A stretch of DNA of 64,000 bases. It comes from an uncultured Chitinophagaceae bacterium (lineage in GTDB: Bacteria; Bacteroidota; Bacteroidia; Chitinophagales; LD1). The stretch lies in assembly GCA_964537475.1 (NCBI GenBank), contig CAZIBY010000006.1:154641-218640 (forward strand), read 5' to 3'. The notes under the pieces are model-generated. The model was not told the DNA's origin. It ran no database searches and was given only the letters and a program-made list of their open reading frames with translations. Of this stretch, positions 1,768 to 6,421 are shown in pieces. Positions within the stretch are counted from its first letter, which is position 1, and every line of letters starts with the position of its first letter. Made by a program: the position numbers and the translations under genes.

Positions 1768-4218
1768 TCACGGATCCACATCCACACTGATCCAAACACT
1801 CTTTAGCTCCTGATCTGCCCGCAGCATATCGAGGCAATCTTTGATGGCTAGTTTAAATGTTTGAAGGTCGTTGGTGCGATGATCCGTTTTGATGATGATA
1901 TCGCGCAGGTAGTAGTTGCGCACTTTTGAGATCAGCGGTGTGGTGGGTCCGAGGGTTTCACCTATTTGCTTTTTGCGGAGATTATTAGCCAGGAAGAGCG
2001 CTGCTTTCTCTACCATCGGTAGCTCCCTATGCCGTAGCGTAATATGCACCATCCGAGAGTACGGCGGATAGTGAAACTGCTGCCGCTCCTGCATCTCAGC
2101 CCGGTAGAAAGAAGCGAAGTCATGCTCCACTACCTGCTTGATGATCCGGTGTTGCGGATTGCTGGTCTGGATGATCACTTTGCCCTGCTTCTGCTTGCGC
2201 CCTGCGCGGCCACCCACCTGCATCATCACCTGAAAGGCTCGTTCATTGCTCCGGAATCCGGGGAAGTACAACGCATGATCAGCATTCACGATGCCCACCA
2301 GGCTCACATGTTCAAAATCGAGTCCTTTGGTCACCATCTGTGTGCCCACCAGTATATCTACCTCACGATTTTCAAATGATGCTATCACGGTGCTGTGACC
2401 ATGCTTGCCACGCGTAGTATCCAGATCGAGACGGCCTACTTTTGCCTCTGGAAATAGCTCTGCTATCTCCTCCTCTATACGCTCGGTGCCCATGCCTACT
2501 ATATCGAGGTCTATAGTGCCGCAGCTTTTGCAGGCGCGGCCTACCGGCTCAGTATAGCCGCAGTAGTGGCATACCAGTTTATTTTGAAACTTGTGGTAGG
2601 TCAGGCTCACATCACAGTTGCGGCATTTATATACAAAGCCGCAAGTGCGGCAGGTCTGGTACTGTGAGAAGCCGCGCCGATTGATAAACAAGATCGCCTG
2701 CTCCTTATTGGCCAGCACCTCCTGTATGGCCACAGTGAGTGTTTGCGTAAAAGAGTGGTGCATGGCCATCTTCCTGCGCTCGCGCTTGATGTCTTCCACC
2801 ACTATCTGCGGCAGCGATACATCTCCGTATCGCTTGGTCATTTCTACCAGGCCGTACTTGCCGCGCTCCGCATTCTGATAGCTCTCCAGAGATGGCGTGG
2901 CGGAGCCCAGGATCACCTTGGCATCAAAGTAGCGCGCCAGCACTATAGAGATGTCCCGCGCATTGTAACGAGGATTCGGGTCCATTTGCTTGAAGGAGTT
3001 GTCATGCTCCTCATCCACTATCACCAGGCCGAGATCGCGGAATGGGAGGAACAATCCTGATCGCGCAGACACGACCAGCTTATATTCTCCATTCAGCACC
3101 TTATTCCATATCTCTACCCGCTCATTCTGGTTAAACTTAGAGTGATAGATGCCGATCTGGTTGCCAAAATATTTGCGGAGCCTGTTGATGATCTGCGCGG
3201 TCAGCGCGATTTCCGGTAGCATATACAATACTTGTTTACCCTCACGGATGGCCTCCGCCATTTTCTCGATATAGACTTGCGTTTTACCGCTGGAGGTGAC
3301 ACCATGCAGCAGTACAGTATTTTTATCCTGAAAGTGCCCGTCTATTTCGTTAATCGCCCGCTGCTGATCTTCACTCAGACTTGCGGTAGTGATGTCATCG
3401 TCGTGAAAAGTCCCCAGACGGGATACCTCCACTTTATATTCCTGAAAGATCTTTTTATCCACCAGACGCTTCAGAGTAGCAGCATCACTCTGGCTCAGGG
3501 CGAGCAGCTCATTTTTTTTGACGTATCGGTTCTTCAGGCTTAGTTGATTGAAAGCAAGCAGTAGTTGCAATTGCTTTGGTGCGCGCTCCAGGTCGCCATA
3601 GAGTTGTTTGAGGTTTTCCTCGTCCTGATATTGCTCAGTCAGCTTGACATAGGTCTCCGTCTTCGGTTTAAATTTTTCTACTACCTCCTCGGCCGAGTGC
3701 GCTATGCCCAGATTAAAAAGTGTACGCAGGTATGGATAGACATTCCTTCGCTGAAGCATATCCTGTATCTGCGGCACAGTCGTCTCCCGCAGCTCCCGCA
3801 GTGCCTGTACGATCAGAAATTCTTCATTATTCAGGCTCTCATAGTCGCCCTCATAAAATTCATTGAGGATGATCTTGGTCTCGCTGGATAGCTTCAGTCC
3901 GGCGGGTAGCGCAGCCTGCATCACCTCACCCTCAGTACAGAGGTAGTAGTCTGACATCCACTTCCAGAGGCGGAGTTGATTTTCTGTCACGATAGGATGC
4001 TCATCCGCCAGAGACTCCAGCAGCTTCGGCTCAAAGACCGGCTTTTCGTTGTGTATCCGCTTTACGATAGCGGTGTAGAACTTATTCTTGCCAAACTGTA
4101 CGATGATCCGTTGCCCCACTTTCACGAAAGGCACGAGGTCAAAAGGGATGGCATAGGTATAGTTCTGCGGCAGTGCTAACGGCAGTAATACATCGGCATA
4201 TGTTATGGAGGAAGACAA
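1768..4218 (-). CDS. priA: Primosomal protein N' (replication restart helicase PriA)
   Basis: 816 aa. Walker A GVTSSGKT, DEEH box (VIVDEEHD), Cys-rich zinc region CRTCGFVYKCRNCDVSLTYHKFQNKLVCHYCG, and a typical PriA N-terminus (YADVLLPLALP). The first start-like codon after the upstream in-frame stop is TTG at 4218, so the start is uncertain. Confidence 0.95.
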   Translation of the reverse strand: MSSSITYADVLLPLALPQNYTYAIPFDLVPFVKVGQRIIVQFGKNKFYTAIVKRIHNEKPVFEPKLLESLADEHPIVTENQLRLWKWMSDYYLCTEGEVMQAALPAGLKLSSETKIILNEFYEGDYESLNNEEFLIVQALRELRETTVPQIQDMLQRRNVYPYLRTLFNLGIAHSAEEVVEKFKPKTETYVKLTEQYQDEENLKQLYGDLERAPKQLQLLLAFNQLSLKNRYVKKNELLALSQSDAATLKRLVDKKIFQEYKVEVSRLGTFHDDDITTASLSEDQQRAINEIDGHFQDKNTVLLHGVTSSGKTQVYIEKMAEAIREGKQVLYMLPEIALTAQIINRLRKYFGNQIGIYHSKFNQNERVEIWNKVLNGEYKLVVSARSGLFLPFRDLGLVIVDEEHDNSFKQMDPNPRYNARDISIVLARYFDAKVILGSATPSLESYQNAERGKYGLVEMTKRYGDVSLPQIVVEDIKRERRKMAMHHSFTQTLTVAIQEVLANKEQAILFINRRGFSQYQTCRTCGFVYKCRNCDVSLTYHKFQNKLVCHYCGYTEPVGRACKSCGTIDLDIVGMGTERIEEEIAELFPEAKVGRLDLDTTRGKHGHSTVIASFENREVDILVGTQMVTKGLDFEHVSLVGIVNADHALYFPGFRSNERAFQVMMQVGGRAGRKQKQGKVIIQTSNPQHRIIKQVVEHDFASFYRAEMQERQQFHYPPYSRMVHITLRHRELPMVEKAALFLANNLRKKQIGETLGPTTPLISKVRNYYLRDIIIKTDHRTNDLQTFKLAIKDCLDMLRADQELKSVWISVDVDP

Positions 4219-4262
4219 AGAATAATGCTACACGGATTAAACGAAAAGCAACCTAAGAAATC

Positions 4263-4439
4263 TTACTTAGCCGCGTTAATTTGCGTAAGAAGCTCTTTGG
4301 CTGGTATATGTTTTACCTTGCCGTTATCACTTACGATCATTACCTCGTTCTTAGCAGCACAGGCCTCTATCAGCTTTTTATTAGAAAGTCTAAATCCCTC
4401 CTGTATCAGGTTTTTTAATCGTATGCTTTCAGCGCTCAT
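4263..4439 (-). CDS. Unlisted 58-aa ORF overlapping the 3' end of the zeta-like kinase gene (candidate cognate partner/antitoxin; function unknown)
   Basis: My own translation of the minus strand: ATG at 4439-4437, MSAESIRLKNLIQEGFRLSNKKLIEACAAKNEVMIVSDNGKVKHIPAKELLTQINAAK, TAA at 4265-4263. It starts 11 nt before the stop of the 4429..5010 ORF. It is shorter than the smallest ORF listed in the track, which probably explains its absence there. No family recognised. Confidence 0.3.
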   Translation of the reverse strand: MSAESIRLKNLIQEGFRLSNKKLIEACAAKNEVMIVSDNGKVKHIPAKELLTQINAAK

Positions 4440-5010
4440 TGTTCGCTTGCTTCATTATTGTATCCCAAATATCGTGATTTTCTACCACGATTTCAATATA
4501 ACCATTCCCTGTAGCTATGATGTTTACCTCAGGCAAGGCGCTTTCTCCGATCATCCAGTAGTCACAGATAGGCATGAATAGCTTAACCAGATTCTCAATG
4601 CCCCTGTAATACCTTCTCTCCACTACATCGTCAGTTATAAAGTGGCCGCCATTTTTAACCCTTATTGCTACACGCTCTTTAGCCGCCTGCGGCGAACTGA
4701 GCCAGATGAACACCAAAGTCACTTTGAATCCCAGAGATTGCGCCTTGCGTACCAGAGATACGTAGCTCCGTGTAGACAGCGTTGTCTCAAACGAAAAATC
4801 TTTACCCTCCGCTAAGAGTTGATTAATGCGCGTCAGCATGATTCTGCCGGCTTCTATGGCAGCACCGTCAGGATTAAAAGGAGATATGCCTGCCGCAATA
4901 TTATCCGCATTCACAAACTCGCGGCAATGGAGTATCTCAGGTAATATCGTGTTACTCGCGGTTGTTTTCCCCGCACCATTGCAGCCGGCTATGATGTATA
5001 GGTTCGGCAT
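4429..5010 (-). CDS. Zeta-toxin-like / COG4185-type P-loop kinase (AAA-family ATPase)
   Basis: 193 aa. N-terminal Walker A LYIIAGCNGAGKTT, then FVNADNIA, FSFETTLS and RVKNGGHFI blocks, which I recall from the zeta toxin (PF06414-like) family of ~190-aa bacterial proteins. Confidence 0.7.
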   Translation of the reverse strand: MPNLYIIAGCNGAGKTTASNTILPEILHCREFVNADNIAAGISPFNPDGAAIEAGRIMLTRINQLLAEGKDFSFETTLSTRSYVSLVRKAQSLGFKVTLVFIWLSSPQAAKERVAIRVKNGGHFITDDVVERRYYRGIENLVKLFMPICDYWMIGESALPEVNIIATGNGYIEIVVENHDIWDTIMKQANNER

Positions 5011-5015
5011 ACTGA

Positions 5016-6284
5016 TCAGTACAGCGGAAACTGTTTCATGTACTCATTTACCTCGGCTTTCACTTTGGCAATGTTGCTTTCATTCTCGATATCTGCCACC
5101 AGGCGGTCTATCCAGGTCGCTATCTGGGCCATGTCATTTTCCTTCATACCACGGGTAGTGATGGCCGGCGTACCGAGGCGGATACCAGAGGTGACAAACG
5201 GCGACTTATCATCATAAGGCACCATATTCTTATTGGCGGTGATGTCAGCTTTCACCAGCGCGTTCTCGGCTTGCTTGCCGGATATGTTCTTATTGCGCAG
5301 GTCTATCAGCATCATGTGGTTGTCCGTACCACCAGAGATGATCTTGTAGTCCTTTGCCAGCATGGCATCAGCCAGCGCTTTGGCATTCTTTTGCACCTGC
5401 ACCTGATACTGTTTAAACTCATCCGTCAGCGCCTCGCCAAAAGCTACCGCCTTTGCAGCGATCACATGCTCCAGTGGGCCACCCTGCGTACCAGGGAATA
5501 CAGCCGCATCCAGGACCGCAGATAGCGATTTCAGCTCACCTTTAGGTGTCTTCTCGCCAAAAGGGTTATCGCCGTCCTTGCCTATCATGATCAGGCCACC
5601 GCGTGGTCCGCGCAGGGTTTTGTGCGTAGTGGTAGTGATGATGTGGCAATGCGGCATTGGGTCGTTCAGTAGCTTAGCAGCTATGAGGCCGGCGGGGTGT
5701 GCGATGTCTGCCAGCAGGATTGCGCCTACTTCATCCGCTATAGCGCGGAAGGTCGCATAATCCCAGTCACGGCTGTAGGCAGAGGCACCACAGATGATCA
5801 GCTTGGGGCGCTCCTTTTGAGCTATTTCACGCACTTTATTCATATCTACCCGGCCAGTGTCCGGCTCTACGTTATAGTGAGTAGCTTGATAGATCTTACC
5901 GGAGAGGTTGACCGGGGAGCCGTGGCTCAGGTGGCCTCCGTGAGAGAGGTTAAACCCAAGTAGCTTGTCACCCGGCTTCAGGCAGGCCAGCATTACAGCC
6001 GCATTAGCCTGTGCGCCTGAGTGCGGCTGCACATTAGCCCACACCGCGCCAAAGAGCTGCTTGATGCGCTCGATAGCCAGCGTCTCCACCTGGTCTACCA
6101 CCTCGCAGCCGCCATAGTAGCGCTTGCCGGGCAGGCCCTCTGCATATTTATTGGTCAGGCAGCTACCCATGGCCTCTATGACCTGCGCCGAGGTGAAGTT
6201 CTCAGAGGCGATCAGCTCGATGCCCTCGCGCTGGCGGTGGAGTTCCTTATTGATCAGGTCAAAGATGGCGGTATCACGCTGCAT
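5016..6284 (-). CDS. glyA: Serine hydroxymethyltransferase
   Basis: SHMT PLP-lysine motif [14 protein letters not shown] and N-terminus [31 protein letters not shown] place the start at the ATG at 6284. The track's 40 extra N-terminal codons are not SHMT-like. Confidence 0.95.
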
Positions 6285-6305
6285 GTTATATCGTTTTTGT
6301 GTGCC

Positions 6306-6313
6306 CAAATGTA
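6306..6313 (-). promoter_or_regulatory. Candidate Bacteroidota -7 promoter box (TAcaTTTG) for glyA
   Basis: The minus strand reads TACATTTG, matching the TAnnTTTG -7 consensus described for Bacteroidetes sigma-A promoters. It lies 21 nt upstream of the glyA ATG. I saw no well-spaced -33 TTTG. Confidence 0.3.
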
Positions 6314-6421
6314 TATCAAACGATGGCAGGTTTCCAAGAATATTTTTACAACAACTCGTAATGAGAAGATAACACGCCGCTTCGCGATAAAATCGTAAAT
6401 TCATGCCCCAAACGCAGCAGT

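Follow-up and report, generated by a model that had tools for sequence, protein, structure and literature searches.

Two overlapping genes between glyA and priA

The DNA analysed here, referred to as the window, is a stretch of 64,000 nucleotides (nt) on contig CAZIBY010000006.1 from an uncultured Chitinophagaceae bacterium (assembly GCA_964537475.1). On its minus strand, in the order glyA, kinase, small open reading frame (ORF) and priA, it carries a cassette of two genes. The first encodes a kinase related to zeta toxins, with an N-terminus that reads MPNLYIIAGCNGAGKTT in the translation of the ORF, and the second a protein of 58 amino acids (aa). A first-pass annotation of the window had described the two as a possible toxin-antitoxin (TA) pair in reverse order. 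Rereading the sequence reproduced its coordinates and sequences, including the gap of 5 nt behind glyA and the overlap of 11 nt between the two genes (Table 1). Translational coupling of the small ORF to the kinase gene via this overlap is likely.

A scan of one genome per species returned 318 kinase relatives; the locus analyses are based on 80 of these loci. A homolog of the small ORF was found by tblastn and manual reading directly downstream of the kinase gene in all 79 Bacteroidota loci in which the sequence continues. Where its start codon can be placed without ambiguity, it usually overlaps the kinase stop by 1-20 nt. Three look-ups seeded by homologs of the small protein each led to a Zeta_toxin gene as the next gene upstream, with unrelated surroundings. 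In none of the 80 loci did we find a conserved small ORF upstream of the kinase, and the locus itself has no upstream partner, as the first-pass annotation had stated. An extra ORF of 61 aa that overlaps the kinase start at L168:3254-3439 (AQGK01000001.1) is not conserved in other loci.

Kinase and small gene are both under purifying selection. Between the window and locus L002 the small ORF carries 18 synonymous and 3 non-synonymous differences, corresponding to a ratio of non-synonymous to synonymous rates (omega) of ~0.03, and in most of 32 pairs this ratio is 0.02-0.1. For the kinase it is 0.04-0.07 in comparisons within the window lineage. As the small ORF is conserved in 79 of 79 loci, is depleted of non-synonymous change and is called as a gene by public gene callers, we consider it a real gene. 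As for the conservation check proposed by the first-pass annotation, the small ORF is absent from none of the 79 evaluable loci, and the supposed partner turned out to be obligatorily linked. Relative to the window, identity is about 35-45% for the small protein and 60-69% for the kinase. Divergence is thus faster in the small protein, a usual trait of antitoxins.

Table 1. Features of the kinase cassette in the window (A7, alignment of 74 kinase homologs used to judge residue invariance).
Feature	Position	Strand	Description
Kinase ORF	4429-5010	-	ATG at 5010, TGA at 4431-4429, 193 aa; short PezT-Mtb-like P-loop phosphotransferase, putative toxin
Small partner ORF	4263-4439	-	ATG at 4439, TAA at 4265-4263, 58 aa; putative antitoxin, unnamed family
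Overlap of kinase 3' end and small ORF 5' end	4429-4439	-	11 nt, read from the sequence
Walker A/P-loop GCNGAGKTT, residues 9-17 with Lys15	4960-4986	-	from translation; invariant in A7
N34-A35-D36	4903-4911	-	D36 candidate catalytic base, 21 residues past the Walker lysine; invariant in A7
E75-T76-T77	4780-4788	-	end of strand 3, candidate substrate-phosphate contact; invariant in A7
Arg/His-rich lid: R113, R117, G121-G122-H123, R132-R133	4612-4674	-	invariant in A7
(V/I)PAKELL motif of the small protein	4287-4307	-	start of C-terminal helix; A47, L50, L51 invariant and V45, P46, K48 at >=90% in alignment A3
Spacer from glyA stop to kinase ATG	5011-5015	-	5 nt; upstream edge of insertion
Spacer from small ORF stop to priA TTG	4219-4262	-	44 nt; downstream edge of insertion

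The kinase and its small partner

The family assignment made by the first-pass annotation was confirmed by profile and fold. The kinase matches the Pfam family Zeta_toxin (PF06414) over residues 2-138 with 35.6 bits against a gathering cut-off of 22.3 (E 8.5e-9), and also passes AAA_33 with 32.1 bits. Searches against NCBIfam and PADLOC gave nothing significant (best PADLOC E 0.033). Homologs fall into at least 8000 clusters in a word-indexed search and are named 'zeta toxin family protein' or 'predicted ABC-type ATPase'; a precomputed PF06414 match was present for 120 of 120 homologs among the matches listed. In sequence searches of the PDB, neither the single sequence nor a profile of 74 sequences had a significant match. 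The AlphaFold2 (AF2) model of the kinase (pLDDT 84, pTM 0.83) retrieved PezT (2p5t_B, E 7e-9), AvrRxo1 (4z8q_A, TM 0.75) and zeta (1gvn_B, TM 0.69) as the top PDB matches in Foldseek. These zeta-type toxins outranked deoxycytidine kinase (dCK), polynucleotide kinases (Pnkp), PFK-2 and gluconokinases.

Four segments of the kinase are invariant among its homologs, namely the P-loop, the N-A-D and E-T-T triplets and the lid (Table 1). The spacing between K15 and D36 equals that between K46, the Walker lysine of zeta, and D67. The triplet E75-T76-T77 may be equivalent to the E-G-T118 region of zeta. Asp67 in zeta and Asp66 in PezT are the catalytic bases, and Thr118 of zeta touches the β-phosphate of UDP-N-acetylglucosamine (UDP-GlcNAc, UNAG) (PMC3062530). 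We assign the kinase to the zeta superfamily, where it resembles the short PezT-Mtb type and looks catalytically intact. It probably recognises its substrate in another way than zeta recognises UNAG. For this clade, UDP-GlcNAc, the substrate implied by the first-pass annotation, is unsupported: sequence searches connect the kinase with no solved zeta toxin, and in size and residue numbers it is like PezT-Mtb, a toxin devoid of the UNAG-binding residues. Identity between kinases is 55-69% across orders, with an invariant N-terminus.

The small protein belongs to a family of at least 1094 clusters at 90% identity and at least 556 at 50%, in which all named members are called 'hypothetical protein' and lack a Pfam domain. 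When the protein and 46 family members were compared with Pfam, and in searches of NCBIfam and PADLOC, only sub-threshold noise appeared (DNA_gyraseA_C, E 0.003; MurD_N). More distant plasmid homologs had no family match either, and the sequence profile found nothing significant in the PDB. The AF2 model (pLDDT 93.9) consists of a helix (residues 3-29), a hairpin (33-38/41-46) and a second helix (47-57), and has no significant fold match in the PDB or in BFVD, a collection of viral structure predictions. No DNA- or RNA-binding family or fold was detected in the profile, Pfam and PDB fold searches. Conserved positions are G15, A19, L23, A28, G40 and the (V/I)PAKELL motif, with which the last helix begins. 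This motif is missing from the shortest family members, and as these end after the hairpin, helix and hairpin form the core of the protein. Ser, Thr, Tyr, His and Asp are absent from its conserved positions, which makes a role as phospho-acceptor unlikely.

Two resemblances of the small protein were noted. MAFFT repeatedly placed the small proteins on kinase residues ~130-175, where secondary-structure elements follow in the same order. An origin of the small protein as a copy of the kinase's own C-terminal helix-hairpin-helix was rejected, since the profile-profile probability was 0.1%, and the placement is a forced-alignment artefact on the same ground. Residues 32-51 (4287-4346) have a weak, sub-threshold match to the C-terminal blade repeat of DNA gyrase A (E 0.003), and the hairpin segment matches a repeat protein of 2216 aa (P0321) 14 times. 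Both probably reflect a generic β-hairpin resemblance.

A single ORF encodes both kinase and small domain in three of the 79 loci (L053, L076 and L080), one of which stems from a cultured strain of Chitinophaga. Such fusions also occur in the database representatives P0316, P0280 and P0319. In P0264 and P0377 an internal deletion has removed the Arg/His lid region from the kinase part, which is fused to an intact small domain, a pattern that resembles inactivated avrRxo1 genes in which arc1 is kept intact. The recurrent fusions imply a physical or functional coupling of kinase and small protein. In other family members the small domain is extended at its own C-terminus: in P0291 (153 aa) by a WYL domain (E 3e-5), which is common in defence regulators, and in P0277 (185 aa) and P0368 (133 aa) by extensions with no family match. 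The extension of P0277 is reminiscent of HicB-type antitoxins but gave no match to them.

Genomic context, mobility and expression

The neighbourhood of the cassette is not conserved. After clustering of all flanking ORFs, no flanking gene was common to more than 9 of the 80 loci, and the glyA/priA context was found only in the three closest genomes. A metagenome scan with the C-terminus of glyA yielded three informative relatives. Two of them, L086 (glyA 91% identical) and L090 (88%), lack the cassette, and priA follows glyA after 72-73 nt. In L085 (glyA 99% and priA 96% identical), two unrelated genes take its place (L085:4648-6092). The glyA-priA intergenic region is thus a hotspot for variable cargo. 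By eye, the first of the two L085 genes encodes a multi-pass membrane protein of 225 aa with a cytochrome b561/MsrQ-like look and the second a protein of 256 aa resembling a molybdopterin oxidoreductase (MsrP/YedY). GC content at third codon positions is 51% in the kinase and 42% in the small gene versus 66% in glyA and 62% in priA. These values and the empty or alternatively occupied sites therefore identify the cassette as an accessory insertion rather than a housekeeping gene. Compared with the window, locus L003 has flanks of 94% and 84% identity, but only 66% in the kinase and ~49% in the small protein.

The distribution of the cassette is that of an accessory and mobile element. Relatives of the kinase are present on 586 plasmid records. 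The kinase is followed by an overlapping small ORF matching the family hidden Markov model (HMM) on a Parabacteroides plasmid (E 3e-17), on Geminocystis pGM3709_04, where it adjoins genes for RloB and an AAA ATPase (E 2e-6), and between VapC modules on a conjugative Nostoc plasmid (E 7e-7). The arrangement is also annotated on Synechocystis pSYSG, amid restriction-modification (RM), nucleotidyltransferase, PIN, DUF4433 and macro-domain (DarT/macro-like) genes, and beside a Tn3 transposase on a conjugative Legionella plasmid, where the weaker matches of the small ORFs downstream of the kinase (E 0.003 and 0.07, respectively) are no more than suggestive. An Agrobacterium relative of the kinase (40% identity) has an unrelated small ORF upstream instead, a partner swapping typical of TA families. 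Two loci on contig CAVTJH010000003.1, L055 and L058, lie ~51 kb apart and encode kinases 96% identical and identical small proteins, which suggests recent duplication or transfer within the genome. In Puia sp. P3 (L045), an ORF ending ~30 nt before the kinase looks like the C-terminus of an insertion sequence integrase/transposase (…ERPHKSLGY…), a possible link to mobile DNA. The alternative offered by the first-pass annotation, a domesticated kinase in a housekeeping string, is disfavoured by the restriction of the glyA/priA context to the three closest genomes, by the empty and differently occupied sites, and by the plasmid, TA and defence contexts.

With a spacer of 5 nt behind the glyA stop codon (TGA, 5018-5016), there is no room for a promoter serving the cassette alone ahead of the kinase gene. 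Within 4200-5400 we found no minus-strand terminator-like site and no Bacteroidetes-type TAnnTTTG promoter motif, and sigma-70-like sites around the cassette are at chance level (4 versus 3.0 ± 2.0 expected). Only short repeats flank the cassette, none of which bracket it. The gene upstream of the cassette is co-directional in 62 of 77 loci, and the gap between the two is below 60 nt in 40 of 77. The cassette therefore often relies on read-through from host genes to which it is unrelated. In the source genome it is probably transcribed by read-through from glyA. Such dependence is atypical for autoregulated type II modules.

Some further details concern the edges of the region. Two overlapping sigma-70-like matches at 4457-4496 (minus strand) lie inside the kinase 3' end, just 5' of the small ORF ATG; the regional number of such matches equals the chance level, and the promoter consensus of Bacteroidota differs from sigma-70. 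The start codon of priA is TTG (4216-4218, minus strand), and the equivalent position in the close relative L085 is ATG. The longest glyA ORF (5016-6404, minus strand) has 462 aa including an N-terminal extension of 40 residues. Homologs and public gene calls start the protein at MQRDTAIF (ATG at 6284), giving 422 aa.

A putative toxin-first module

The cassette is laid out like type II TA systems in general, with two small genes side by side in one direction that are found as a pair in varied contexts, mobile elements among them. On balance we consider it probable that the pair is a toxin-first, type II-like TA module of the zeta superfamily whose antitoxin belongs to a new family. The earlier description as a toxin-first module fits the anatomy of the locus with its linked, overlapping downstream partner. 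What we infer, namely toxicity of the kinase, its substrate, and its binding and inhibition by the small protein, could be combined as follows. By analogy with zeta/PezT, ng_zeta1, AvrRxo1 and PezT-Mtb, the kinase would phosphorylate an essential nucleotide-type metabolite in an ATP-dependent reaction and arrest growth when unopposed. Translational coupling of the small gene to the end of the kinase gene would result in roughly matched synthesis of the two proteins. The small protein, with the long N-terminal helix and the β-hairpin as its conserved core, would bind the kinase directly and keep it inactive as a type II-style antitoxin.

Among characterised systems, PezT-Mtb/PezA-Mtb from M. 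tuberculosis (Rv0366c-Rv0367c), a 'non-canonical PezAT-like' pair, comes close with regard to the kinase, which is a short member of the zeta family (197 aa compared with 193 aa here). By residue number, key positions of the two kinases (K15, N34, D36, P44, R116/R117 and H122/H123) are similar. PezT-Mtb is bacteriostatic, needs each of K15, D36 and R116 for toxicity and is devoid of the UNAG-binding residues of zeta/PezT (PMC6362051). In contrast to the 58-aa protein, which is encoded downstream and modelled as helix-hairpin-helix, PezA-Mtb is encoded upstream, has 129 aa and adopts a ParD-like ribbon-helix-helix (RHH) fold. Neither the small protein of the window nor its family members matched ParD_like (PF11903) or RHH families. 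The epsilon/zeta and PezAT systems of Streptococcus share the Pfam family, the phosphotransferase fold, the Walker lysine and catalytic Asp, and a small neutralising protein. However, zeta and PezT are longer (~250-290 aa) and have a defined UNAG pocket. Epsilon and PezA are encoded upstream and block ATP binding with a three-helix bundle, to which PezA adds a helix-turn-helix. No Epsilon_antitox match was obtained for the small protein or the 46 family members.

The gene order of the cassette is that of AvrRxo1:Arc1 from Xanthomonas and relatives, in which the antitoxin gene immediately follows the zeta-like toxin gene. AvrRxo1 also has the best TM-score to the kinase model. AvrRxo1:Arc1 is a validated zeta-like TA pair; the GC content of the module is below that of the genome, its flanks differ between species and the antitoxin is kept when the toxin decays (PMC4938570). 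Unlike the kinase, AvrRxo1 is a protein of ~400 aa that includes a type III secretion region, and its substrate is NAD. Arc1 is an all-helical protein of 81-98 aa (3-4 helices) with a KExFD(x25-27)(Y/L)ExxYY motif (PMC4938570), whereas the 58-aa protein has neither this motif nor the Arc1 fold and contains a β-hairpin. Antitoxins of zeta-type toxins vary in fold (PMC5923241; PMC10532202). In ng_epsilon1/ng_zeta1 from N. gonorrhoeae, likewise a zeta-type toxin with an antitoxin of unrelated fold and a case in which substrate specificity can differ, the antitoxin wraps the toxin of 401 aa in an extended conformation unrelated to the canonical epsilon fold (PMC5923241). EzeT from E. coli unites toxin and antitoxin functions in one polypeptide, comparable to the natural fusions found here (L053, P0316). 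Its cis-acting antitoxin domain is N-terminal, whereas the small domain is C-terminal and fusion is exceptional. The downstream antitoxin of AvrRxo1:Arc1, the fold diversity of zeta antitoxins and the single polypeptide of EzeT all support the interpretation as a toxin-first TA module.

Several points weigh against this interpretation. The small protein has no recognisable DNA-binding domain, and autoregulation from an own promoter is unlikely because the cassette usually lies less than 60 nt behind a co-directional gene. For a TA toxin, the kinase is unusually conserved (55-69% across orders, invariant N-terminus), and within Mucilaginibacter the cassette is syntenic and long-lived; both observations would also be expected of a non-toxic enzyme that is of use to its host. 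Fusion is commoner among genes for enzyme subunits than among TA genes. No PADLOC defence system matches the cassette. Moreover, AvrRxo1 of C. fuscus, a member of the zeta family, is not growth-inhibitory in E. coli (PMC4938570). The main rival explanation draws on several of these points. In this case the pair would form a two-subunit accessory enzyme, in which the small protein is required to activate or stabilise a non-toxic kinase of nucleotides or metabolites, to set its specificity or to act as its chaperone, to the benefit of the host. Strict linkage and strong purifying selection on both genes, repeated fusion as often seen with subunits of one enzyme, the conservation of the kinase, the syntenic retention in Mucilaginibacter and the lack of both a DNA-binding domain and a dedicated promoter in our searches are consistent with such an enzyme. 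Less compatible with it are the patchy distribution with empty sites in close relatives and the presence of the cassette on plasmids and inside TA and defence clusters. All of the nearest relatives that have been characterised, as judged by family and fold, are toxins. Some fused forms have lost the kinase lid and still retain the small domain, which is difficult to reconcile with a protein that only serves the kinase. We regard a two-subunit enzyme as rather unlikely.

The remaining explanations received less weight. As a specialisation of the TA interpretation, the cassette might mediate abortive infection, in which a phage cue removes or titrates the small protein and the kinase then poisons the nucleotide pool. 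This is suggested by the company it keeps on plasmids, i.e. RM, DarT/macro-like, nucleotidyltransferase and PIN genes on Synechocystis pSYSG, RloB and AAA ATPase genes in Geminocystis and VapC modules in Nostoc, and by the one family member fused to a WYL domain, a domain common in defence regulators. In most Bacteroidota loci, however, the neighbours are ordinary metabolic or housekeeping genes, the best PADLOC match is not significant (E 0.033) and only four weak matches to phage records were obtained, making a specific anti-phage role improbable. The small and basic 58-aa protein might also be solely a transcriptional or translational regulator of the cassette that does not touch the kinase, which would then be controlled otherwise, and the WYL fusion in P0291 hints at a regulatory setting. 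Given the lack of matches to DNA- or RNA-binding families or folds, the usual lack of an upstream intergenic region able to hold an operator, and in-frame fusions to the kinase that point to a protein-protein relationship, we consider this very improbable. Finally, the ORF is short, was missing from the earlier annotation track and has no family match, as might be expected of a chance ORF or annotation artefact beside an orphan kinase. Conservation in 79 of 79 loci and across phyla together with an omega of ~0.03 refutes this possibility, to which the confident structure model (pLDDT 93.9) and the independent gene calls leave virtually no room.

The preferred interpretation as a toxin-first TA module can be extended, although we hold the following version only tentatively and think it rather doubtful as a whole. 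The 58-aa protein could be the founder of an unrecognised antitoxin family that spans phyla (Bacteroidota, Cyanobacteria and possibly Legionella plasmids), has a helix-β-hairpin fold without detectable relative and neutralises a large clade of short 'orphan' zeta-like kinases with a non-UNAG substrate. The cassette would then be a promoterless 'operon hitch-hiker' that inserts just past the stop codons of unrelated host genes, here glyA, and its synthesis would be slaved to host transcription instead of an autoregulated promoter.

Both proteins are already present in databases, as 'zeta toxin family protein' and 'hypothetical protein', respectively. Full-text literature searches for related terms revealed no description of their pairing. 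A survey of PezT/zeta homologs from 2023 restricted its screen to upstream genes and described many of the homologs as orphans (PMC10532202). It applied HMM thresholds of E <=1e-10 and a coverage of >=80% (PMC10532202). With an E-value of 8.5e-9 and a coverage of ~76%, the window kinase falls below these thresholds, which may have excluded this kinase clade.

In summary, the kinases of the zeta/PezT type are well studied, yet most homologs outside the Firmicutes are without a known antitoxin. A strictly linked downstream partner family can now be assigned to a very large clade of these kinases (at least 8000 clusters). For annotation, this means that the small gene should be called, the pair should be flagged, and the kinase should not be mistaken for a housekeeping gene in a glyA-priA operon. 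Should the small protein prove to be an antitoxin, it would represent a new antitoxin fold and the pair a second toxin-first arrangement in the zeta superfamily, and the cassette would provide a simple, clonable system to find the substrate of the short PezT-Mtb-like kinases.

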